A stretch of 24,000 nt of DNA from the NCBI GenBank assembly GCA_015488275.1, contig WFOD01000047.1, forward strand, positions 781 through 24,780. The letters are read 5' to 3'. Both the position numbers and the translations under genes were made by a program. Every line of letters starts with the position of its first letter. Positions within the stretch are counted from its first letter, which is position 1. Under the pieces are notes generated by a model. That model did no database searches. It saw only the letters and a list, made by a program, of their open reading frames with translations, and was not told the DNA's origin. The stretch is from Deltaproteobacteria bacterium (GTDB lineage Bacteria > Desulfobacterota > Desulfobulbia > Desulfobulbales > S012-135). Below are positions 1 through 12,009 of this stretch, piece after piece.

Positions 1-1
1 C

Positions 2-202
2 TACGGCATGGAAGAGGCGGGCGGCACCCAGTGCCTGCTCCTTGCCGGCGTGGACTTCGACCTGCTCGGCTTCAATCCCCGTATCGACAACGTACCCTAT
101 CCGCAGTTCACCTGGGCCTATATCAAGAAAGTGCCGGTGCTCATCGGCCTGCTCTTGGCCGCTGGCACAGCGATCCACCGGTTGACCAGGGAACGCGACT
201 GA
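2..202 (+). CDS. hybA: C-terminal end of a HybA-like 4Fe-4S ferredoxin-type hydrogenase electron-transfer subunit (5' end lies outside the window)
   Basis: The frame is open from the window edge to TGA 200-202. [24 protein letters not shown] resembles the YGE-EAGGTQ-L-L-GV-F--L segment near the C-terminus of HybA/NrfC/PsrB-type subunits (recalled from memory). A hydrophobic C-terminal anchor follows ([15 protein letters not shown]). It lies directly upstream of the large subunit. Confidence 0.5.
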
Positions 203-228: not shown

Positions 229-1929
229 ATGGCGCGGCGCATCACCATCGACCCGGTAACCCGAATCGAGGGCCACCTGCGTATCGACTGCGAGGTCCGC
301 GACGGCGCAGTGACAAAGGCGTGGTCCTCGGGCCAGATGTGGCGGGGATTCGAGCTGATCCTCCAGGGCCGCGATCCTCTGGAGGCATGGCTGTACACCC
401 AGCGGTTCTGCGGCGTGTGAACGTCGGTGCACGCACTGGTCTCAGTGCGTACAGTGGAAAACGCCCTCAACCTCGAGGTGCCGAAAAACGCCCAGTACAT
501 CCGCAACATGATCATGGGCGCCCATGCGGTGCACGATCACATCGTCCACTTCTACCATCTCTGCGCCCTGGACTGGGTGGATATCGTTTCCGCCTTGTCA
601 GCCGATCCGCGGGCCGCGGCCCGCTTGGCCCAGAGCCTCTCCGACTGGCACCGCAACACCTACGAGGAGATGAAGGCCACCCAGGAGCGGCTCCAAGCCC
701 TGGTCAACTCAGGCCAACTTGGCGTTTTCGGCTCAGGGTACTGGGGCCATCCGGCCATGAAGCTGCCGCCAGAGGTCAACCTGCTGGCGGCCACCCATTA
801 CCTCCAGGCCCTGGAGTACCAGCGGGAGATCAACAAGGTGGTGGCCCTGCTGGGCGGCAAAACGCCCCACATCCAAAACGTGGCCGTGGGCGGCGTGGCC
901 AATCCCATCAACCTGGACAGCCCGGACACCCTGAACATGGAACGGCTGTACCACATCCGCACCCTGCTCGACAAGGCCGACGCCTTTGTCAAGAAGGTGG
1001 CCCTGGTGGATGTGGCCGCGGTAGGCGCCTTCTACGCCGACTGGACCGCGCATGGCACCGGGGTGACCAACTACCTTTCCGCGCCGGACATGCCAATGGA
1101 CGAACAGGGAACAGAGTTCTTCCTCCCCGGCGGCTACATCCCGGCCGGTGATGTGGGGGCCTTTACCGCCATCACCTCGTTCGACGATCCGTTTTTTGAA
1201 AAAAACGTCCAGGAATCGATCAAACACTCCTGGTACGACGGCGACTGGCACCGCCATCCCTACGAGGAGGAAACCGTGCCCCGCTACACCGATTTCCAGG
1301 ACGATGGCAAGTACTCGTGGGTCAAGTCGCCAACCTTCAAGGACGAGCCCGCCCAGGTGGGCCCCCTGGCCAACGTGCTGTGTATGTACGCCGCTGGCCA
1401 CGAGCCGACCAAGAAGTACGTGCACCAGGTCCTCGACACGGTGTCCACTCTGGCCAAAACCAAGGTGGGCGTCCCAGCCCTGCACTCGACCATCGGCCGG
1501 ATCGCGGCCCGGGTGGTCCGCTGCGCCGTGCTCAACGACACGCTGGCCCACCAGTGGCGGTCCCTGGTGGCCAACATCGAGTCGGGCGACACCAGCACCT
1601 TCAACCCGCCATCCATGCCCAGCGGCACGGTGCAGGGATTCGGTTTCCACGAGGCCCCGCGGGGCATTCTCTCCCACTGGATCGTCATCGACAACGGCAA
1701 GGTCAAGAACTACCAGGCCGTGGTGCCCTCCACCTGGAACGCCGGGCCGCGCAATCACAACGATGCGCCCGGCCCTTACGAGGCGGCGCTGGTCGGCACG
1801 CCGCTGGCCGATCCAGAACAGCCCCTGGAGGTCCTGCGCACCATCCATTCCTTTGATCCATGCCTGGCGTGCGCCATCCATCTGTTTGACCCCGCTGGCG
1901 GCGAGCTGGTGCAGGTGCGGGCGCTGTGA
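229..1929 (+). CDS. hybC: [NiFe]-hydrogenase large subunit, HybC-type, read through an in-frame UGA at 418-420 (predicted selenocysteine)
   Basis: GGAGGA (217-222) precedes ATG 229. The N-terminus [23 protein letters not shown]...QRFCGV-[TGA][16 protein letters not shown] is collinear with E. coli HybC. The track ORFs 31-420 and 427-1929 are in the same frame. The C-terminus has the DPCLACAIH motif (1855-1881) plus a 15-aa extension for proteolytic maturation. Internal conserved blocks include [39 protein letters not shown] and [10 protein letters not shown]. Confidence 0.85.
418..420 (+). other. In-frame UGA at the position of the second Cys of the RxCGxC (L1) motif; predicted Sec codon
   Basis: It is the only stop interrupting an otherwise full-length large-subunit frame. 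It aligns to a metal-ligating Cys. A SECIS-like hairpin follows. Confidence 0.7.
428..453 (+). promoter_or_regulatory. SECIS-like stem-loop within the coding sequence, downstream of the UGA
   Basis: Perfect 7-bp stem ACGCACT (431-437) / AGTGCGT (444-450) with loop GGTCTC (438-443). Two further pairs are possible below a C/A mismatch (428-429 with 452-453). The loop GGUC sits at +21 to +24 counted from the U of UGA; in E. coli fdhF it sits at +22 to +25. Confidence 0.65.
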
Positions 1930-2552
1930 AAGCGACAGGCCAACACAAAGGCCACAGGTCAAGGGACAGGCACGACGGCCCAGGGCGGCGGCCGGCCATC
2001 CTGGTGGTTGGAGTGGGCAACGTCTTGTTGCGCGACGAAGGGGTAGGGCTGCACGTGCTGGCCGAACTGGCCCGCCACTACCGGTTCGGTCCTGATACCG
2101 AACTGCTGGACGGCGGCACGTCTGGCATTGAGCTGTTGCGGCATGTGACGGGCCGGGAACTGTGCCTCTTCATCGACGCCATGCAATCCGGCGCGCCTCC
2201 GGGCACGGTGACGGTCTTTCGCGACCAGCAGGTAGGGGCGCGGCTCTCCTCCCGCATCTCGCCCCACCAACTGGGGCTTTCCGACCTCCTAGCCGCCGCC
2301 TTGCTCACTGGCGAGACGCCCAAGCGGGTGGTTCTGGTGGGCATCGAGCCGGCGGTCCTCGATCCAGGGGTCGATCTTTCGCCCCCAGTGGCCCGCGCCG
2401 TGCCAGAGGCCATGCGCCGGGTCATTGCCGAGCTTGCCGCCCACGGGGCGCAAGCACGACCACGGACAGAGCCGCTAACGGGAGGGCCGCGCTTTTTCTG
2501 GCGCAACGAACGGGAGCCTCAGGAGCATACAACGGTCCAGGCAACGGGCTGA
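1926..2552 (+). CDS. hybD: Hydrogenase maturation endopeptidase (HybD/HyaD/HupD family)
   Basis: ILVVGVGNVLLRDEGVGLHV, LLDGGTSG, FIDAM and SPHQLG match the family metal-binding Glu/Asp/His blocks. The GTG start overlaps the hybC stop (GTGA). The true start is uncertain because of a basic N-terminal extension. Confidence 0.88.
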   Translation: MKATGQHKGHRSRDRHDGPGRRPAILVVGVGNVLLRDEGVGLHVLAELARHYRFGPDTELLDGGTSGIELLRHVTGRELCLFIDAMQSGAPPGTVTVFRDQQVGARLSSRISPHQLGLSDLLAAALLTGETPKRVVLVGIEPAVLDPGVDLSPPVARAVPEAMRRVIAELAAHGAQARPRTEPLTGGPRFFWRNEREPQEHTTVQATG

Positions 2553-2568: not shown

Positions 2569-3702
2569 ATGAACGGGCAACAGCACGACATCAAGATGTG
2601 GACCCCGCATACAGTGATCCTTTTCGTCCTCATGCTGGTGGGCCTTGCCGCCATGACCTACCGGCTCCTTTACGGCCTCGGCGCCGCCTCGGGCATGAAC
2701 GACGTGTATCCCTGGGGCTTCTGGCTCGCCTTCGACGTGTTGGGCGGAGTGGCGATGGCCGCTGGCGGATTCATCATCGCCTGTGCCATCTACATCTTTA
2801 ACTGGAAGAAATACAAGCCCATTGGCAGGCCGGCCATCCTCACCGCCTTTCTCGGCTACCTCATGGCCGTGGTCGCCCTGTTTCTCGATATCGGCCATCC
2901 CTTGCGCCTCTGGCATCCGATGGTCATGTGGCAGGTCCATTCGGTGATGTGGGTGGTGGCGATCCATGTCATCCTCTACACCACCACCTTGGGCATCGAA
3001 TCGTCGCCCATGCTCTTGGAAAAACTCGGCTGGCAACGCACGCTGGCCGTGCTCAAAAAGCTGATGGTGGGAGCGGTCATCTTTGGCGTCATGCTCTCCA
3101 CCCTGCACCAGGCATCCTTGGGCGCGGTCTTTTTGATCACCGGCCCCCGCATGTCGCCTCTGTGGTACACCCAGTTTCTGCCTTATCTTTTCCTGGTCTC
3201 GGCCATCGCTATGGGCCTGGCAATGGTGAGCATGGAGGCGATGTTCAGCTCTTGGGCCTTCAACCACCGCATCCCAGGCGAAATCTTTACCGGCCTGGCG
3301 GCCGGCCTGCGCAACACCTTGGCCGTCTACCTCGTTCTCAAGCTTTTTTTCCTCATCAAGAACGCTGGCATTGGCGCAGCCCTGGACGGCAGCCTGGCCG
3401 GCAACATGTACCTGGCCGAGATGCTCATCGGCGTGGTGATGCCGCTCGCCGTGCTCACCTTTGCCGGCACCCATCTGGACCGCCTTTCGCTCCTCGTGGT
3501 CAACGTGCTGGTCATCGGCGGCGTGCTCCTCAACCGGCTCAACGTCTGTCTGTTCAGCATGGAGGAGTACGCTGAATTCCGGGGCGGCTCCTACCTGCCT
3601 ACCTTGCCCGAGCTGCTCATCACTCTTGGCATCGTGGCCCTGGGCGTGTTCCTTTTCAAGATGGCGGCCAAACACCTGCCGCTCTTTGCCGCGGAAAATT
3701 GA
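2569..3702 (+). CDS. hybB: NrfD/PsrC-family integral membrane subunit of the hydrogenase (HybB-like)
   Basis: AAGGAG lies upstream of ATG 2569. The protein is polytopic and hydrophobic. YPWGFWLAFDVLGGVAMAAGGF, LEKLGW, STLHQASLGAVFL and LPTLPELLITLGIVAL are collinear with E. coli HybB as recalled. Confidence 0.85.
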   Translation: MNGQQHDIKMWTPHTVILFVLMLVGLAAMTYRLLYGLGAASGMNDVYPWGFWLAFDVLGGVAMAAGGFIIACAIYIFNWKKYKPIGRPAILTAFLGYLMAVVALFLDIGHPLRLWHPMVMWQVHSVMWVVAIHVILYTTTLGIESSPMLLEKLGWQRTLAVLKKLMVGAVIFGVMLSTLHQASLGAVFLITGPRMSPLWYTQFLPYLFLVSAIAMGLAMVSMEAMFSSWAFNHRIPGEIFTGLAAGLRNTLAVYLVLKLFFLIKNAGIGAALDGSLAGNMYLAEMLIGVVMPLAVLTFAGTHLDRLSLLVVNVLVIGGVLLNRLNVCLFSMEEYAEFRGGSYLPTLPELLITLGIVALGVFLFKMAAKHLPLFAAEN

Positions 3703-3741: not shown

Positions 3742-4083
3742 ATGCATGAGTTGAGCTTGGCATGTTCGCTGGTGGATCTGGCCTGCCAGCGGGCGCAAGA
3801 GGAAGGGGCGAGCCGCATCACCGCCCTGGAGGTCGAGGTGGGGGCCCTGGCCGGAGTGATGCGCGAGGCCCTGGCCTTTGGCTTTGAGGCCGCCTGCCGC
3901 GACACCCTGGCCCAAGGGGCGCGACTCGTGATCATCGAGGAGCCGGCCAAGGGTGTATGCAGCGCATGCCGCGTCACCTGCCGGCTGGCCCGGTTCACCA
4001 TCACCTGCCCGGCCTGCGGCGCGGCGGCGCTCGAAATCAGCGGTGGAGACCGTCTCTGCCTGCGCGCCATTGAGGTAGCGTGA
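3742..4083 (+). CDS. hypA: Hydrogenase nickel-insertion protein HypA
   Basis: N-terminal MHELSL motif. Two CxxC pairs are present (CSACRV ... CPACG). Size is 113 aa. Confidence 0.92.
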   Translation: MHELSLACSLVDLACQRAQEEGASRITALEVEVGALAGVMREALAFGFEAACRDTLAQGARLVIIEEPAKGVCSACRVTCRLARFTITCPACGAAALEISGGDRLCLRAIEVA

Positions 4084-4179
4084 GCCAACAAGCGGCGGCG
4101 CAAACGTAAAAGTGATCACAGGACTGCCTCTTCGAACGCCGAAGTCGCAGCCTCGCAGACCAGCAACCAAGGATCCATC

Positions 4180-4902
4180 ATGTGCACCGACTGCGGTTGC
4201 CACCCGCATCATCCCGACGACACCCCGCATACGGGTGATCCAGGGGACGGGTACGCCTCCCGCCGTCTCTTGGTGGAGGCGGCGGCCACTGCGGCCAACG
4301 ACGAGACGGCCCGCCACAACCGGGAGGCGTTTCGCCGCCAGCGGCTCACGGCCCTCAACCTGATGAGCTCGCCAGGGGCGGGCAAGACATCGATCCTGGA
4401 GCGGACCATCCGCCACCTGGCCGGCCGCCGGCCGGTATATGTCATCGAGGGTGACCAGCAGACGCGCAACGACGCCGAGCGGATCGAGCGGGCCGGCGCA
4501 ACAGCGGTACAGATCAACACGGGCAGCGGCTGCCATCTGGAGGCCGGCATGGTGGCCCGGGCCGTGGAGCGGCTCGATCCCCTTCCAGGCGGCCTGCTGT
4601 TCATCGAGAACGTCGGCAACCTCGTGTGCCCGGCCATGTTCGATCTCGGCGAGCAGGCCAAGGTGGTCATCATCAGCGTAACCGAGGGTGACGACAAGCC
4701 GGAAAAATACCCCTACATGTTCCGGGCCGCCCGGCTCTGCCTGATCAACAAGACCGACCTGCTCCCCTACGTGGACTTTGATCCCGGCCGCTGCCGGCAA
4801 CTCGCCCGGGCGGTGAACCCGCACATCACCTGCATCGAGCTGTCGGCCCGCACCGGCGAGGGATTCGACGCCTGGCTGCAATGGCTTTCCGGGCTGGCGT
4901 AA
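4180..4902 (+). CDS. hypB: Hydrogenase nickel-incorporation GTPase HypB
   Basis: N-terminal MCTDCGC high-affinity metal motif. P-loop SSPGAGKTS. Also ENVGNLVCPA and the NKTDL G4 motif. Confidence 0.95.
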   Translation: MCTDCGCHPHHPDDTPHTGDPGDGYASRRLLVEAAATAANDETARHNREAFRRQRLTALNLMSSPGAGKTSILERTIRHLAGRRPVYVIEGDQQTRNDAERIERAGATAVQINTGSGCHLEAGMVARAVERLDPLPGGLLFIENVGNLVCPAMFDLGEQAKVVIISVTEGDDKPEKYPYMFRAARLCLINKTDLLPYVDFDPGRCRQLARAVNPHITCIELSARTGEGFDAWLQWLSGLA

Positions 4903-7211
4903 AACGCACCGCGAGCCACGCCTTGCCGCGCCCGCGCCACGGGGAGAACGCACGGCTGCGTATCGAGGTGCAAGGTTTTGTCCAGGGCGTGGGCTTCCGG
5001 CCACACGTCTATCGCCTGGCCACCCGCCTCGGGCTCAGCGGCTTTGTGCGCAACACGCCAGCAGGCGTGGAGATCGAAGTGCAGGGGCCGGCCGGGACGC
5101 TGGCCCGCTTTCAGGACGAACTTGCGGCCTCGCCACCGCCGGCGGCCCGTATCCTGGCCCTGCACACAGAGCGGGTCCGGCCGGGCGCTGAACGCTCTTT
5201 TGTCATCCACCCCTCGACCGCCGGCCACGCGGCCACCGCCCTGGCCAGTCCCGACATCGCCCTGTGCGCCGATTGCCGCCGCGAACTGTTCGCCGCCGGC
5301 GACCGCCGGCACCGCTATCCCTTCATCAACTGCACCAACTGCGGCCCGCGGTTTACCATTATCGAATCCCTGCCGTACGACCGGCCGGCGACCACCATGC
5401 GCTCCTTCACCATGTGCGCGGCCTGCCGACAGGAATACGAGGATCCGGCAGACCGCCGCTTCCACGCCCAGCCCAACGCCTGCCCGGCCTGCGGGCCGGC
5501 ACTCGTGCTGCTGGCCCCTACGGGCGCTCTCCTTGCCCGGCGCGAGGCGGCCCTGGCCGGCGCGCGCCACGAGCTGCGGGCCGGAAACATCGTGGCCATC
5601 AAGGGCATCGGCGGCTTCCACCTCGCCGTGGACGCGGCCAATGCAATGGCCGTGCACCGTCTGCGGCGGCGTAAACGCCGGCCGAGCAAGCCCTTTGCCC
5701 TCATGGTCCGCGACCTTGCCACCGCCCGCCGTATCTGCCGCCTTTCCCCCCAGGAAGAAGCGGCGCTCTGCTCGTGGCGGGCGCCCATCGTGCTCTTGGA
5801 ACGCCTCGCCGCCGCCGATCGCCTCGCCGCCGCCGTGGCCCCAGGACTGGACCGGCTGGGGATCATGCTGCCGTACACGCCGCTCCACCATCTCATCCTG
5901 GCCGACGGACCGGACATCCTGGTCATGACCAGCGGCAACCGCAGCGGTGAACCCATCGTCACCAGCAACGACGAGGCGATGCAGCGCCTCTCCCCGCTGG
6001 CCGACGCCATTCTGGCCCACGACCGCGACATCGTGCTCCCGTGCGACGATTCGGTGGAGATCCAGCTTGGCCAGGGGGTCGTCCCCCTGCGCCGCGGCCG
6101 GGGATGGACGCCGGCCCCCCTGCCCCTCGCCGGTCCGGCTTCCCTTGGCCCGCCGGTGCTCGCCACAGGCGGCGACATGAAAAACGCGGCCTGCACCTTG
6201 CGCCATGACCTCGCCTTTGCCGGACCGCACGTGGGCGACGTGGACACGCCAGCCGGCCTTGCGGCCTTTGCCAAGGCGATCGCCCACATGGAGCATCTCC
6301 TGGGGGTGCGGCCGGAAATCGTGGCCTGCGACCCGCATCCCGACTATCTGACCCGTCAATGGGCCGCGGCCTGCGGCCGCACCGTTGTGGAGGTGCAGCA
6401 CCATCACGCCCACTTTGCCGCCTGCCTGGCCGAAAACCGGCTCAGCGGGCCAGCGGTGGGGCTGATCCTCGACGGCACGGGCTACGGCCTGGACAACACG
6501 ATATGGGGCGGCGAAATCCTGGTGGGCGACGCGCGGCACACGGCGCGGCGCGGCCATCTGCGGCCCCTGCGCCTGGTGGGCGGCGAGCGGGCGATCCGCG
6601 AGCCCTGGCGCACCGGCATCGGCTTTCTTTTGCAAGTGGCGGAACCCAGCCTGCTGCCCGCGCATCTGCAGACCTATCCCTGGCAGATGCTGGCCCAGGC
6701 CCTGGCCGCAGGCATCAACGCGCCGCTCACCACGAGCTGTGGCCGGTTGTTCGACGCGGCCGCCGCCATCACCGGCCGCTGTCTGCGCGCCTCCTTTGAC
6801 GGAGAAGCGCCCATGCGCCTGTCGGCCGCCCTGACCCTGCCCGCCGACCATCTTTACCCGGTGCGCCTGGAGGAAAAGGACGGTATACTGGTGCTCGATA
6901 CCGGCCCGCTCCTGGCCGGCATGGCCGGCGACATGCAAGCCGGCGTCGGGGCCGAGAGGATCAGCGGCCGCTTCCACGCCTCGCTCGCCCATCTCCTGGC
7001 CAGCGCCGCTGCTCAGGTGGCGGCCGACGAGGGGCTCGATATCGTGGTCCTGTCCGGCGGCTGCTGGGCCAACCCGCATCTCTTCCATCTCGTGCGCCGC
7101 GAGCTCGCCGAACGCGGCCTGCGGGTCGCCCGCCACCAATTCCTGCCGCCCGGTGATGGCGGGCTTGGCCTGGGGCAGGCGGTAACGGCGCGGTTGCGGG
7201 CGGCCGGTTAG
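4881..7211 (+). CDS. hypF: Carbamoyltransferase HypF
   Basis: Acylphosphatase-like VQGVGFRPHVYRLA. Two zinc-finger repeats (CADCRREL..NCTNCGPRFTII and CAACRQEY..ACPACGP). YrdC-like IKGIGGFHLA and a Kae1-like C-terminal half. Starts 22 nt inside the hypB 3' end; the exact start is uncertain. Confidence 0.93.
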   Translation: MAFRAGVKRTASHALPRPRHGENARLRIEVQGFVQGVGFRPHVYRLATRLGLSGFVRNTPAGVEIEVQGPAGTLARFQDELAASPPPAARILALHTERVRPGAERSFVIHPSTAGHAATALASPDIALCADCRRELFAAGDRRHRYPFINCTNCGPRFTIIESLPYDRPATTMRSFTMCAACRQEYEDPADRRFHAQPNACPACGPALVLLAPTGALLARREAALAGARHELRAGNIVAIKGIGGFHLAVDAANAMAVHRLRRRKRRPSKPFALMVRDLATARRICRLSPQEEAALCSWRAPIVLLERLAAADRLAAAVAPGLDRLGIMLPYTPLHHLILADGPDILVMTSGNRSGEPIVTSNDEAMQRLSPLADAILAHDRDIVLPCDDSVEIQLGQGVVPLRRGRGWTPAPLPLAGPASLGPPVLATGGDMKNAACTLRHDLAFAGPHVGDVDTPAGLAAFAKAIAHMEHLLGVRPEIVACDPHPDYLTRQWAAACGRTVVEVQHHHAHFAACLAENRLSGPAVGLILDGTGYGLDNTIWGGEILVGDARHTARRGHLRPLRLVGGERAIREPWRTGIGFLLQVAEPSLLPAHLQTYPWQMLAQALAAGINAPLTTSCGRLFDAAAAITGRCLRASFDGEAPMRLSAALTLPADHLYPVRLEEKDGILVLDTGPLLAGMAGDMQAGVGAERISGRFHASLAHLLASAAAQVAADEGLDIVVLSGGCWANPHLFHLVRRELAERGLRVARHQFLPPGDGGLGLGQAVTARLRAAG

Positions 7212-7233
7212 CAGCCCGTTGCACAACGGGCTG
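7212..7233. repeat. Short palindromic hairpin CAGCCCGT-tgcaca-ACGGGCTG immediately after the hypF stop
   Basis: 8-bp perfect inverted repeat read directly. The same stem sequence recurs at 9890-9916 and as the basal stem of element C (20059-20100). Confidence 0.55.
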
Positions 7234-7323
7234 TGCGCGACACACGGATGCGCCACTGACGCTGCAGATGGGATACCCTGTGACCAGATACCTGCCGGAA
7301 ACACCAAGGAGGAGCCATACGCC

Positions 7324-7662
7324 ATGTGTCTCGCCATCCCAGGCCAGGTAGCCACGATCACCGACGAGGGAGGCTTGCGCATGGCCGAGGTGGCCTACGG
7401 TCCTGTCCGCAACAGGGTCTGTTTGGCATATCTGCCAGAGGCCAAGGTCGGCGACTTTGTGATCGTCCACGCAGGGTTCGCCATCTCGATCCTGGACGAG
7501 GCCGAGGCGGCCGAGCGCCTGGCCGCCTGGCGCGAGTACGTGGAGGAGGCCCGGCGGGCTGGAATGGAGATCCCAGAAGCCGATACCGTACTCCAGGCCC
7601 TGGAGACGCCGGAACGCCCCAAGAAGCACGTTACGGACGACGACCATCACGAACGCCGCTGA
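7324..7662 (+). CDS. hypC: Hydrogenase assembly chaperone HypC
   Basis: [10 protein letters not shown]-terminus, where the essential Cys2 must follow the initiator Met. AGGAGG lies about 12 nt upstream. [17 protein letters not shown] core. The charged C-terminal tail is longer than usual. Confidence 0.9.
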
Positions 7663-7685
7663 CCGCCCGCTCCTGGAGCCAAACC

Positions 7686-8782
<1,097 letters not shown>

Positions 8783-8786
<4 letters not shown>

Positions 8787-9844
8787 ACCGCGCCAAGCCC
8801 CCTCCTTCTTGCCCCCTGCCAGGAGCCGCCGCCGGCAACGGCCGCATCACCCTGGCGCACGGAAGCGGCGGCCGGCTGAGCGCCGAACTCATCGAGCGCC
8901 TCGTGCGCCGCCACTTCAGCAATCCGGCCCTCGACCGGCTGGAAGACGCGGCCACCCTGCCCGCCACCAGCGGCCGGCTGGCCTTTTCCACCGACACCTT
9001 TGTTGTCCAACCGCGTTTTTTCCCTGGCGGCAACATCGGCGAGTTGGCGGTGAACGGCACGGTGAACGATCTCGCCATGATGGGGGCCCGTCCCCGCTGG
9101 TTGAGCGTGGGGTTTGTGCTGGAAGAGGGCTTTTCCCTGGCCGAACTCGAAGAGATCTGCGCCAGCATGCGCCAGGCCGCGGACAACGCCGGGGTAACGA
9201 TCGTGACCGGCGACACCAAGGTGGTGGGACGCGGCGGCTGCGACGGCCTGTTCATCAATACCGCTGGGATCGGCGTGGTGCCGGAGGGCGTGGATCTGGG
9301 CGCGCACCGCATCCAGGCCGGCGACCGCCTCATCGTCTCTGGTCCGATCGGCAGTCATGGCATGGCCGTGATGCTCGCCCGCGGCCAGCTCTCCTTTGCC
9401 TCGGAGATCGCCAGCGACACCGCGCCCCTGGCCGGGCTGGCCGTCGATATCCTGCGCGCCGCAGGCAGCGGCCTCCACGCCATGCGCGACGCCACCCGCG
9501 GCGGTCTTGGCGCAGTGCTGGCCGAGTTCGGCCGCGCCGCTTCCCTTGGCATGGAGATCACCGAACAACGGCTTCCCGTGCCGCCGGACGTCCAGGCCGC
9601 CTGCGACATCCTGGGCCTCGACCCGCTCTTCGTGGCCAACGAAGGGGTGCTGGTGGCCGTGGTGACGCCGGAGACGGCGGACGCCGTGCTCGCCGCCTGC
9701 CACGCGCATCCGCAAGGCAGGCACGCGGCCTGCATCGGCGCGGTGTGCGCCGAGCATCCTGGCAAACTCCTCAGACGCACGCCCTTTGGCGGCCGGCAAA
9801 TCGTGGCCGTTCCAGCGGGCGAGCTGCTGCCGCGCATCTGTTGA
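8783..9844 (+). CDS. hypE: Hydrogenase maturation protein HypE (carbamoyl dehydratase)
   Basis: ATGA overlap with the hypD stop. LAHGSGG N-terminal motif, AIR-synthase-like body, and the C-terminal PRIC motif ending the protein. Confidence 0.95.
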
Positions 9845-10397: not shown

Positions 10398-10712
10398 TTG
10401 CCCCCGGGCACCGCCGGGCTAATGGCCCAAGATCCTCCCATAACCGGCCACTCCAGCAATCCCGACCAGGCGGATCGCGCCCTTCGGGGCGGCTGGCTGC
10501 CTTGGTTCCGGGCCGAGGAGTTCGCCGATTTTCCTGCCCTGGTCCGCGCCATGCCGCCGGCCTGCCTCGCCCACCAGGGCCGCGAGGTGTACGACGATCC
10601 CGTTCGCTACCGCGACGCGGCCGGCCAAAAACGGCGAAAGCAAATGCCTATCACCTCACCTGTCAGATCAGAGCAACGGGAATCTGGACGATTTGCTCGC
10701 CTAGGGGCCTAA
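10398..10712 (+). CDS. Hypothetical protein (orphan ORF); its 3' end carries copy 1 of the islet repeat
   Basis: Only the open frame and a protein-like middle segment (GWLPWFRAEEFADFPALVRAMPPACLAHQGREVYDDPVRY) support it. No recognised motif and no clear RBS. It could be a gene remnant or non-coding. Confidence 0.25.
   Translation: MPPGTAGLMAQDPPITGHSSNPDQADRALRGGWLPWFRAEEFADFPALVRAMPPACLAHQGREVYDDPVRYRDAAGQKRRKQMPITSPVRSEQRESGRFARLGA
10632..10656. repeat. Islet repeat, copy 1 (diverged): CGGCGAAAGCAAATGCCTATCACCT
   Basis: Shares CGGCGAAAGCAAAT-CCTA-CACCT with copy 3 (2 mismatches in the 25-nt span 10632-10656 versus 11992-12016). Confidence 0.6.
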
Positions 10713-10723
10713 TCTCGTCGCTG

Positions 10724-11059
10724 TTATTGACACGGGGCCGAAGGGCGCGTCGTGCTCGGCGATGAAGCGGCGCGGGCAGCCACCTGCTTCGGGGATGTGT
10801 GGGTAGAGAATTTTATCTCAATGGGCAGGAGGCCGAATTTGCCCTCCAGAACCAGATCCACCTCGGCGCCGTGCTTGGTTTGGAAATAAAAATATTCCCA
10901 GCGCGTCGCGCTGGTCGCCTGCCCACCCTTGATGATCTCCTTGATGACGAACGATTCGAAATTCTGACCTATCCGAGGGGAGCGGATCATCTTTTCCCGG
11001 GAGTCGATTCCGGCGAGATAGTGGAGCAGGGCCGTGAGGTTCCTTTCCAGTACGGTCAT
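10724..11059 (-). pseudogene. Remnant of a DUF4143-type AAA+ ATPase (C-terminal domain only)
   Basis: LLHYLAGI..PRIGQNFESFVIKEIIKG..WEYFYFQTKHGAEVDLVLEG..LLPIEIKFS matches the C-terminal DUF4143 region of this ATPase family. The roughly 250-aa N-terminal ATPase domain is missing (TAA 3 codons upstream of the Met). The C-terminal tail drifts into GC-rich Ala/Ser/Pro sequence. Confidence 0.6.
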
Positions 11060-11248
11060 ATTCTGATGTTACATCAGGTTTTTCCCGGTATGAAAGAACG
11101 GCGACAGGAATTTGGGGCTCTTCTCTCGCCGCCATCCCATGCGAAAGGGTGGCCAACGGCGTGTTTCCGCCCTCCGGTTCGTTCCTGGTCATGGACGGCC
11201 AGGTGCCGCTCCGCCCCCCTGGCCGGGCCGTTCCGGACCGCGGTCCTG

Positions 11249-11273
11249 GCCGGCCCGGCGAAAGCAAATTCCT
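11249..11273. repeat. Islet repeat, copy 2: GCCGGCCCGGCGAAAGCAAATTCCT
   Basis: 25/25 identical to 11985-12009, in direct orientation. Confidence 0.85.
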
Positions 11274-11298
11274 GTCAACTGTTACGAGACCGTCACAA

Positions 11299-11327
11299 TT
11301 GACAATGTGAGTCGCGCATGATAGAGT
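11299..11327 (+). promoter_or_regulatory. Candidate sigma70-type promoter of the toxin-antitoxin operon
   Basis: TTGACA (11299-11304), a 17-nt spacer, then TAGAGT (11322-11327), about 65 nt upstream of the antitoxin ATG. Followed by reiterated TAG(A)GTTGA / TAGTTGA / TAGTTCGA motifs (11322-11362) that could be operator sites. Confidence 0.35.
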
Positions 11328-11393
11328 TGAGCTAAATTATAGTTGACCTATATTTAGTTCGATTGCTGGGCGTGTCACTGAAGGAGGTTGTCC

Positions 11394-11651
11394 ATGAATA
11401 TCCTTTCCGTCTCGGAGGCGAAAATGAAGCTCAGCTCCCTGGTCGATTCTGTCAAGGCGACCGATCAGGAGGTGGTTATTACCAAGAACGGCAAGCCAGT
11501 CGCTGTCCTGGTGAGCCCTGAAGAGTTCGAGGGGTGGCGGGAGACCATATCCATACATTCCGACGCCGACCTGATGCAGGAGATCAGAAGAGGATTGAAG
11601 GCCTTAAAGAAGAACAGGAGCGATCTTTATTCACTTGAGGAACTGTTGTAA
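11394..11651 (+). CDS. Type II antitoxin, Phd/YefM family
   Basis: AAGGAGG lies 6 nt upstream of ATG 11394. MNILSVSEAKMKLSSLVDSV...VVITKNGKPVAVLVSPEEFEGWRET is a typical Phd/YefM N-terminal fold signature. The toxin gene starts 3 nt after its stop. Confidence 0.85.
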   Translation: MNILSVSEAKMKLSSLVDSVKATDQEVVITKNGKPVAVLVSPEEFEGWRETISIHSDADLMQEIRRGLKALKKNRSDLYSLEELL

Positions 11652-11653
11652 GG

Positions 11654-11941
11654 ATGGCTGGTGAATATCGATTGCGTGTGCCGGTTGAAACCGCAGCATT
11701 TTTGAGGAAACTGCATCCCAAGATCAAACGGCACATCAAGTCGGCCCTTGAGATGATTGTCAATGATCCTTTCTTGGGAAAGCCGCTCAAAGACGATCTG
11801 GAAGGTTTGCGAAGTTTGCGCGTCAAAAGGTACCGAATTGTCTACCGGGTCGCGGTTCCTTTCCGGGAAATAGAGATCGTCGCCATTGGACCCAAAAGAA
11901 ATATTTATGAGGACACATTCAGGCTTATCAGCCGTGAATGA
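11654..11941 (+). CDS. Type II toxin, RelE/ParE family
   Basis: 95 aa. KIKRHIKSALEMIVNDPFLGKPLKDDLEGLRSLRVKRYRIVYRV...IEIVAIGPKRNIY matches the RelE/ParE family pattern. Tight coupling with the upstream antitoxin. Confidence 0.85.
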   Translation: MAGEYRLRVPVETAAFLRKLHPKIKRHIKSALEMIVNDPFLGKPLKDDLEGLRSLRVKRYRIVYRVAVPFREIEIVAIGPKRNIYEDTFRLISRE

Positions 11942-11984
11942 ATCGGTGTGAAAGAGTAAAGTGTCGCGTCCCGCCTCCTTGCCC

Positions 11985-12009
11985 GCCGGCCCGGCGAAAG
12001 CAAATTCCT
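11985..12009. repeat. Islet repeat, copy 3: GCCGGCCCGGCGAAAGCAAATTCCT
   Basis: 25/25 identical to 11249-11273. Lies about 28 nt beyond the permease stop codon. Confidence 0.85.

Follow-up and report, generated by a model that had tools for sequence, protein, structure and literature searches.

The window considered here, a stretch of 24,000 nucleotides (nt) from contig WFOD01000047.1 of a bacterium of the Desulfobulbales, carries near its beginning a gene for the large subunit of a [NiFe] hydrogenase of the Hyb/Hyd-2-like kind, whose reading frame is crossed by a single in-frame TGA at the codon for residue 64. Directly after this TGA the transcript can fold into a compact hairpin (positions 431-450), and the comparisons described below indicate that this hairpin is very probably a bacterial selenocysteine insertion sequence (SECIS), so that the UGA would be read as selenocysteine (Sec). 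The coordinates of all features are collected in Table 1. Homologous loci that were compared with the window carry labels of the form L002; L001 is the same contig as the window, and a window coordinate equals the L001 coordinate minus 893.

When the TGA is read through, the product matches Pfam PF00374 over residues 39-551 (4e-215), and its top match in the PDB is Escherichia coli HybC (6en9_L, E = 1e-232), with which residues 1-566 align one to one. The position taken by the TGA is Cys64 of HybC, i.e. the second Cys of the N-terminal RxCGxC motif. Accordingly, the N-terminal motif of the window's enzyme would read RFCGV-U-TSVHAL, and the C-terminal motif, DPCLACAIH, keeps both of its Cys residues; in each of the two motifs it is the second Cys that has the role of bridging Ni and Fe (PMC8020662; PMC13582414). 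The open reading frame (ORF) is intact over the 502 codons past the TGA. Among the protein matches listed, 117 of 120 full-length homologues have Cys at the TGA column, and this nearly Cys-only result of the protein search arises because genes with a TGA at this codon (hereafter Sec-type, as opposed to Cys-type) appear as split database entries of lower rank.

The similarity to HybC from end to end, together with HybA-like, HybB-like and HybD-like neighbours, places the enzyme among the Hyb/Hyd-2 hydrogenases of group 1, an assignment that is based on HybC homology, the NCBIfam model and the gene cluster, without a formal HydDB subgroup call. The top NCBIfam model, ‘hydrogenase 2 large subunit’ (NF007778), scores 858.7 bits, which is under the NCBI equivalog cut-off of 969. 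In relatives L179-L181 the small subunit gene lies upstream of the large one. With a UGA at the second Cys of the N-terminal CxxC and a SECIS-like hairpin after it, the gene is, judged from its sequence, a ‘CxxU’-type group 1 hydrogenase; since the putative Sec codon lies in the N-terminal motif and the C-terminus reads DPCLAC, it therefore does not have the arrangement of the classical [NiFeSe] enzymes, with their C-terminal UxxC. The NCBIfam model of the classical HysA type (NF045518) reaches 351 bits, against a cut-off of 780, and the C-terminal DPCLACAIH is not of that type either.

In public gene calls the gene is represented by two separate entries, a 63-residue ORF (229-420) and a 500-residue ORF that begins at GTG 427 (427-1929); across relatives, the length of the second ORF is 494-500 residues. 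Split calls of the same kind are seen in L002 and L003, and in the protein-database entries P0001, P0036 and P0063.

The hairpin itself consists of a 5′ arm ACGCACT (431-437), a loop GGTCTC (438-443) and a 3′ arm AGTGCGT (444-450), the arms forming seven Watson-Crick pairs, and ten nt (421-430) separate the stem from the TGA. Counted from the U of the UGA, the GGUC of the loop occupies positions 21-24. The arms are made of the codons CAC GCA CTG (H68 A69 L70) and TCA GTG CGT (S72 V73 R74). The initial annotation, made from the letters alone, had described a perfect 7-bp stem starting 10 nt after the TGA, with GGUC at positions 21-24 and with arms drawn from the codons of the conserved HAL...SVR block, and this description is borne out in full: the coordinates that it gave are all exact. 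The two lower pairs (U428-A453 and G429-C452) are found in the window and its nearest relatives only and are not kept across the wider class of relatives with the same hairpin (class A, described below); in a consensus fold of 64 class-A sequences, only the pairs between columns 15-20 and 27-32 survive. A longer extension of the lower stem (424-457) was dropped as well, as the class-A consensus fold does not conserve it.

With RNAfold, the hairpin is the minimum free energy (MFE) structure in 415-475 (61 nt), the segment that had been singled out for folding at the outset, as well as in 418-460 (43 nt) and in 380-520 (141 nt), and no better competing fold was obtained. RNAfold also pairs G438 with C443, which turns the structure into an 8-bp stem with a tetraloop GUCU. 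Taken alone, 431-450 (20 nt) has a free energy of -11.9 kcal/mol (z = -4.4, with 0 of 200 shuffles as stable), and 428-453 (26 nt) has -12.8 kcal/mol (z = -3.3); the longer contexts are unexceptional (z = -1.66 for 61 nt, z = -0.8 for 141 nt). The same folding test was applied to the proven SECIS of E. coli fdhF, whose query sequence was confirmed by its presence, annotated as fdhF, in 5419 of 5426 genomes; it gave -14.9 kcal/mol with z = -1.56, so that a modest z-score is no argument against function. In the 380-520 fold, a second hairpin of 6 bp (411-426, CGGCGU/ACGUCG) holds the UGA in its 4-nt loop; its pairing is lost in relatives and it is probably fortuitous.

The hairpin agrees with the consensus for bacterial SECIS elements (bSECIS; Zhang and Gladyshev 2005, in the summary given in PMC13188914 Fig. 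2), which in that form comprises a loop of 3-9 nt on a stem of 4-16 bp, a G at loop position 1 or 2 with G or U as the usual next base, a distance of 16-37 nt from UGA to loop, and an MFE of -7.5 kcal/mol or lower. Specifically, (i) the loop has 6 nt on 7 bp, or 4 nt on 8 bp, (ii) the loop GGUCUC has G at positions 1 and 2 and then U, (iii) A420 and G438 are separated by 17 nt (421-437), or 20 nt when counted from the U, (iv) both the core and its slightly longer form are more stable than the threshold, (v) the hairpin lies directly 3′ of an in-frame UGA that is aligned with Cys, the ORF being intact beyond, and (vi) it is kept in Sec-type genes and relaxed in Cys-type ones, with the exception of a nested Cys-type clade (L179-L182).

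Comparison with the fdhF element shows both likeness and difference. In fdhF the stem begins 11 nt from the UGA, a bulged U17 is present on the 5′ strand, and G23 and U24 lie in the loop (PMC8659212); the latter two positions agree with those given in the initial annotation. Both elements are stem-loops within the coding sequence, placed right after a UGA that replaces a redox-active or metal-ligand Cys, both have a small apical loop (starting with GGU in the window), and their stability and z-scores are similar. The spacing is nearly the same (10 nt here), as is the location of the loop GU (22-23 here), and when the pair G438-C443 is formed the tetraloop takes positions 22-25, exactly as in fdhF. 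The differences are that the bulged U17, a SelB contact in fdhF, is missing from the 5′ strand, that the stem is a perfect 7-8 bp rather than 5 bp plus a bulge, that the long lower stem of fdhF is weakly present and not conserved, and that most class-A relatives have a loop GGCUUC without the GU dinucleotide. With the bulge missing, the hairpin is similar to the fdhF SECIS rather than a copy, and the GGCUUC loop of most relatives suggests that recognition by the cognate SelB probably differs from that in E. coli; presumably, the cognate SelB reads slightly different determinants than E. coli SelB does.

The strongest evidence comes from relatives. A DNA-level pattern for CGV-TGA-T[ST]VHAL matched at least 120 metagenome contigs, all of them in hydrogenase frames, and in total a TGA is found at the same codon in approximately 150 orthologous loci from metagenomes and metagenome-assembled genomes (MAGs) of several lineages. 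Among the close relatives in species-representative genomes (n = 51) 29 have TGA and 22 have TGY; most of these 51 come from MAGs that bear the labels Desulfobulbia, Desulfobulbaceae, Desulfobacterales or Nitrospirota. Protein surveys thus show the Cys-type and DNA searches a TGA majority, which looks like a systematic blind spot of annotation. The usual length of the Sec-type genes is 566 codons, and the C-terminal DPCxxC is kept in 73 of the 79 that are complete. In some Sec-type loci the ORF comprises 109-511 codons and the hydrogenase frame is lost soon after the hairpin (in L105 after ...EDAL), probably through assembly frameshifts or chimeric contigs; such frame-losing metagenome loci were excluded from the tree.

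All 150 Sec-type loci have a hairpin after the TGA, and the hairpins fall into three registers. Class A is that of the window (its seven additional loci form 6 of the 7 pairs, the outermost being broken), and classes B (e.g. L005, L018, L042) and C (e.g. L008, L010, L063) have hairpins that are not homologous to it and lie 6-7 nt further downstream; the variants of class C include ACCGCCUC-GGU-GAGGGCGGU (L152, L153). In all three classes a G is present within the first two loop positions, G22 being invariant in the 64 class-A sequences, and in isolation the hairpins of the classes have -8.2 to -11.7 kcal/mol. Differences at the amino acid level (HALSSVRAV, HALTSARSI) go with the form of the RNA. 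If the SECIS has been rebuilt in these registers over a nearly constant peptide, either Cys would have been replaced by Sec at the bridging position several times independently, or the RNA signal would have migrated while the protein stayed under constant constraint. Among solved structures, the hydrogenase of Allochromatium vinosum (3myr) is nearest to a class B enzyme, so that the CxxU substitution spans more than one subgroup of group 1. The RNAfold MFE was rejected as a classifier for class B: it usually favours a 5-bp stem CGCAC/GUGCG with an 8-nt loop, which is not conserved because A18 varies, while CAGCUC/GAGCUG is frozen and has a compensatory change. In three class B loci (L042, L048, L066) the large subunit ORFs extend past the usual C-terminus, with a tail that ends in ...GCGCS or similar.

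The constraint on the hairpin is seen most directly at synonymous sites. For 80 distinct class-A Sec-type sequences, the third-position entropy over 31 codons was computed, and the codons +4 to +10 have 0, 0, 0.43, 0.43, 0.43, 0 and 0.43 bits, which is the lowest 7-codon window of all (mean 0.25 versus 0.98 overall); several flanking codons of the same sequences reach 1.3-1.9 bits. In classes B and C it is codons +6 to +10 that are frozen (0 bits), so that the block tracks the shifted register, and 26 Cys-type sequences have 0.84-1.71 bits at the same codons without any dip. As the hairpin codons are frozen while their flanks are near saturation, shared ancestry alone fails to explain the invariance, and the constraint at the nucleotide level exceeds that of the protein code. 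The selection at the RNA level that had been suggested from the perfect complementarity is thereby supported. The compensatory changes that were also expected among TGA-bearing orthologues are present in part: class A has none, and class B has one pair that is A-U in 22 and U-A in 7 of 29 sequences, a covariation score that 0 of 500 shuffles reached. For class A the evidence is one of conservation, not of compensation.

The Cys-type relatives offer the complementary comparison, and the expectation that the hairpin would be weaker there holds for 23 of 27, which retain no more than 2-6 of the seven pairs of class A, have different codons (GCC, ATC, CGC/CGG) and form neither the class B nor the class C hairpin; among them are L154, L158 and L173, sisters of the class C lineage. 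The four exceptions, L179-L182, comprise three distinct sequences; they encode Cys by TGT or TGC and keep the class-A hairpin (seen, for instance, at L179:3190-3240), weakened in L180 to two G-U pairs, and they nest in the Sec-type clade. When residues 58-82 are left out, their proteins share 87% identity with the Sec-type L178 and 74-75% with any Cys-type protein outside the group, and neighbour-joining (NJ) trees built likewise place them within a proper subset of the class-A Sec clade in 200 of 200 bootstraps, and as sister to L178 in 148 of 200. Another Cys-type locus, L139, is also nested in the Sec clade and its hairpin has decayed. The simplest reading of L179-L182 is a probable recent reversion from Sec to Cys that left a fossil SECIS; alternatively, the hairpin may have preceded Sec as a pre-adaptation, the direction being taken from the NJ tree alone. 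Remnant SECIS elements in Cys homologues derived from selenoproteins are a published pattern (PMC1794560 Fig. 4), discussed also for Group 4 hydrogenases (PMC13582414 Discussion, where Inoue 2024 is cited for such remnants), and L179-L182, with a Cys codon and a hairpin within a Sec clade, share it.

A number of observations weigh against a SECIS. The decoding genes selA, selB, selC and selD are absent from positions 1-33849 of the source contig (approximately 34 kb), ARAGORN finds no tRNA in the window, and among the 5 tRNAs that it finds in the 184 locus sequences (1.24 Mb) none is a tRNA-Sec. No Rfam family matches the whole window at the gathering threshold, and permissive searching of 350-550 gives noise only (E ≥ 2); as no curated family matched the hairpin, this silence speaks neither for nor against a SECIS. 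The bulged U of fdhF is missing, as described above. The class-A stem shows no covariation in 64 sequences, in which five of seven pairs are invariant, one pair is U-A or U-G and the outer A-U fails to form in 6, and the same hairpin persists in the Cys-type L179-L182. Furthermore, the MFE downstream of the codon is not lower in Sec-type (-17.8 kcal/mol) than in Cys-type genes (-19.9 kcal/mol), because GC-rich Cys-type genes form other hairpins there, and for the comparison of types it was replaced by structure-specific pair counts and the entropy at synonymous sites. Lastly, the hairpin classes were defined from the sequences themselves, the Cys-type genes are fewer and more diverged than the Sec-type ones, and equal stability is reached by 14% of 5000 synonymous recodings (drawn with the codon usage of this genome).

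Several of these points would also be expected if the hairpin were a passive by-product, i.e. if conserved HAL...SVR residues and inherited codons happened to produce complementarity without a role in decoding, and the invariance of the class-A stem, its retention in L179-L182 and the hairpins of GC-rich Cys-type genes can all be read in this way. In the recodings some stem of at least 7 bp appears in 24%, and all seven pairs of the window are retained in 27 of the 5000; the specific hairpin is thus unlikely to arise by chance, and a generically stable one is not. We consider a by-product unlikely, however, as the hairpin codons are frozen in the very sequences whose flanking synonymous sites are near saturation, the frozen block moves with the register of the hairpin in two other TGA-bearing lineages, and the stem relies on codons that are rare in this genome (GCA for 5% of Ala, TCA for 4% of Ser and CGT for 9% of Arg). 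Moreover, most Cys-type genes lack the hairpin with nearly the same peptide, and those that carry it are nested in the Sec clade.

A slightly less probable alternative retains the SelB-dependent signal and changes the residue: the UGA would be read as Cys by a tRNA of the tRNA(ReC) type (selC*), which would yield an ordinary all-Cys enzyme. Reading of UGA as Cys before a SECIS by tRNA(ReC) is known from some Desulfobacterota (Vargas-Rodriguez 2018, as reported in PMC13582414), and the data here do not identify the inserted residue. Against it, tRNA(ReC)-like genes accompany single-Sec motif types in only approximately 2% of genomes (PMC13582414 section 17), and none of the five tRNAs in the loci examined here is selC-like. 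A true stop, whether through pseudogenization, sequencing error or two genuine polypeptides of 63 and 500 residues beside which the hairpin would be irrelevant, is very improbable in spite of the automatic calls of two ORFs with the second from GTG 427, as the recurrence of TGA at exactly the Cys64 codon in approximately 150 independent contigs of several lineages excludes error and pseudogene, purifying selection acts on the downstream ORF, whose motifs are all intact, the split would remove a Ni-Fe bridging ligand, and no Shine-Dalgarno-like sequence precedes the GTG.

Recoding of UGA directed by a SECIS is a textbook mechanism. If the hairpin acts as a SECIS, a ribosome positioned on the UGA would leave it exposed approximately 10 nt downstream, the C-terminal domain of SelB would bind it, with the G-rich apical loop (GGU) as the main contact, and SelB would bring Sec-tRNA(Sec) to the A site, where the UGA would be read as Sec. 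Read-through would yield the full large subunit of 566 residues, and of the two ligands bridging Ni and Fe in the mature enzyme one would be a selenolate. A product of this kind is plausible, as E. coli Hyd-1 with Sec engineered at the equivalent site (C79U) is active, with 13% of the native activity (PMC8020662).

Table 1. Features of the hydrogenase locus and hairpin classes of Sec-type relatives. Positions refer to the window, except for the classes, where they are counted from the U of the UGA.
Feature	Positions	Strand	Basis or extent
HybA-like 4Fe-4S ferredoxin gene, 3′ end, C-terminal membrane anchor	1-202	+	L001 gene table: 325-residue Fer4 protein
[NiFe] hydrogenase large subunit gene, Hyb/Hyd-2-like	229-1929	+	566 codons, one in-frame TGA read through
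Putative selenocysteine codon UGA, residue 64	418-420	+	Alignment to HybC
Two extra lower pairs, U428-A453 and G429-C452, under a C430/A451 mismatch	428-453	+	Folding
Candidate SECIS core	431-450	+	Upper stem 431-437/444-450 (7 bp), apical loop GGUCUC 438-443
Hydrogenase maturation endopeptidase (HycI/HybD family)	1926-2552	+	Pfam PF01750, 4e-27
NrfD-type integral membrane subunit (HybB-like)	2569-3702	+	Pfam PF03916
hypA-hypB-hypF-hypC-hypD-hypE maturation genes	3742-9844	+	Pfam, L001 gene table
hypA	3742-4083	+	Pfam, L001 gene table
hypB	4180-4902	+	Pfam, L001 gene table
hypF	4881-7211	+	Pfam, L001 gene table
hypC	7324-7662	+	Pfam, L001 gene table
hypD	7686-8786	+	Pfam, L001 gene table
hypE	8783-9844	+	Pfam, L001 gene table
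Class A hairpin (the window's), ACGCACU-GGYYUC-AGUGCGU	stem 14-20/27-33, loop 21-26		82 loci plus 7
Class B hairpin, CAGCUC-CGUGC-GAGCUG	stem 21-26/32-37, loop 27-31		35 loci plus one with 5/6 pairs
Class C hairpin, UGACCUC-GGY-GAGGUCA	stem 20-26/30-36, loop 27-29		22 loci plus 3 variants

The surroundings of the gene are those of a hydrogenase cluster (Table 1), with the HybA-like gene ending 26 nt upstream of the large-subunit start. Beyond the hyp genes, at approximately 10700-11950 of the window, the G+C content falls (0.53 in 11001-12000 versus approximately 0.65 elsewhere); this stretch carries a DUF4143 gene on the minus strand (approximately 10724-11059) and a pair of PhdYeFM antitoxin (approximately 11394-11651) and ParE toxin (approximately 11654-11941) genes, and could represent a small insert beside the hyp genes, mobile or acquired. 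In L002 a ParE toxin gene also follows right after the hydrogenase cluster. On the source contig past the window (L184:13045-15386), a YcaO-domain protein with TPR repeats adjoins a Prok-JAB protein, which is unrelated to the hairpin.

Among the nearest known systems are other hydrogenases with an N-terminal CXXU, which have been described as [NiFeSe] variants of Group 4 (Takano et al. 2026, PMC13582414); for Group 1, Baltazar et al. 2011 (cited in PMC13582414 and PMC8020662) noted two sequences, next to one of Group 3. The window's gene shares with these the putative Sec at the second Cys of the N-terminal CxxC, a predicted bridge of Ni and Fe, as well as a SECIS-like hairpin after the UGA with G in the first two loop positions, close Cys-type genes that sometimes keep SECIS-like hairpins, and an unchanged organization of the gene cluster. 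It differs from the Group 4 variants in being a periplasmic uptake enzyme of the Hyb/Hyd-2-like Group 1 type, not an energy-converting complex. The classical [NiFeSe] enzymes, i.e. HysA of Nitratidesulfovibrio vulgaris and of Desulfomicrobium baculatum (PDB 2wpn, 1cc1), likewise have a Group 1 large subunit with one selenocysteine among four metal ligands, inserted by UGA recoding, but there Sec is the terminal ligand of a C-terminal UxxC, whereas the window has DPCLAC and its putative Sec at the N-terminal motif; they also match less closely (PDB E approximately 1e-77 to 1e-80, versus that of HybC given above).

As a kind of element, the SECIS is therefore known, and CxxU in group 1 was noted in 2011; going by the sequences compared here, it appears to be far commoner than reported, with two cases in the searchable literature versus 150 Sec-type loci and a TGA in more than half of the close species-representative genomes. 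In reviews, natural CxxU enzymes of group 1 are termed ‘purported’, and a Sec at this site has been obtained by engineering only, in Hyd-1 C79U (PMC8020662). What seems to be undescribed in the searchable literature is the Sec-type majority among close relatives, its concealment by split gene calls, and the three SECIS registers with a fossil clade. Whether the Hyb-type and Isp-like CxxU group 1 uptake hydrogenases form a large and widespread natural class, hidden by split gene calls and with a SECIS rebuilt at least three times in different registers, is a proposal that we regard as evenly balanced.

For practical purposes, annotation should treat the large subunit as a single selenoprotein gene, and its expression or biochemistry would need selenium and a compatible SelB. 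For the evolution of SECIS elements, the family provides three hairpin architectures on one conserved peptide, together with a probable revertant clade that carries a fossil hairpin. For the enzymes themselves, the interest lies in the site of insertion, the N-terminal metal-bridging Cys of a Hyb-type uptake hydrogenase: if a bridging selenolate alters catalysis (H2 affinity, bias, or the response to O2 or sulfide), nature would have a second way of tuning the [NiFe] site with selenium.

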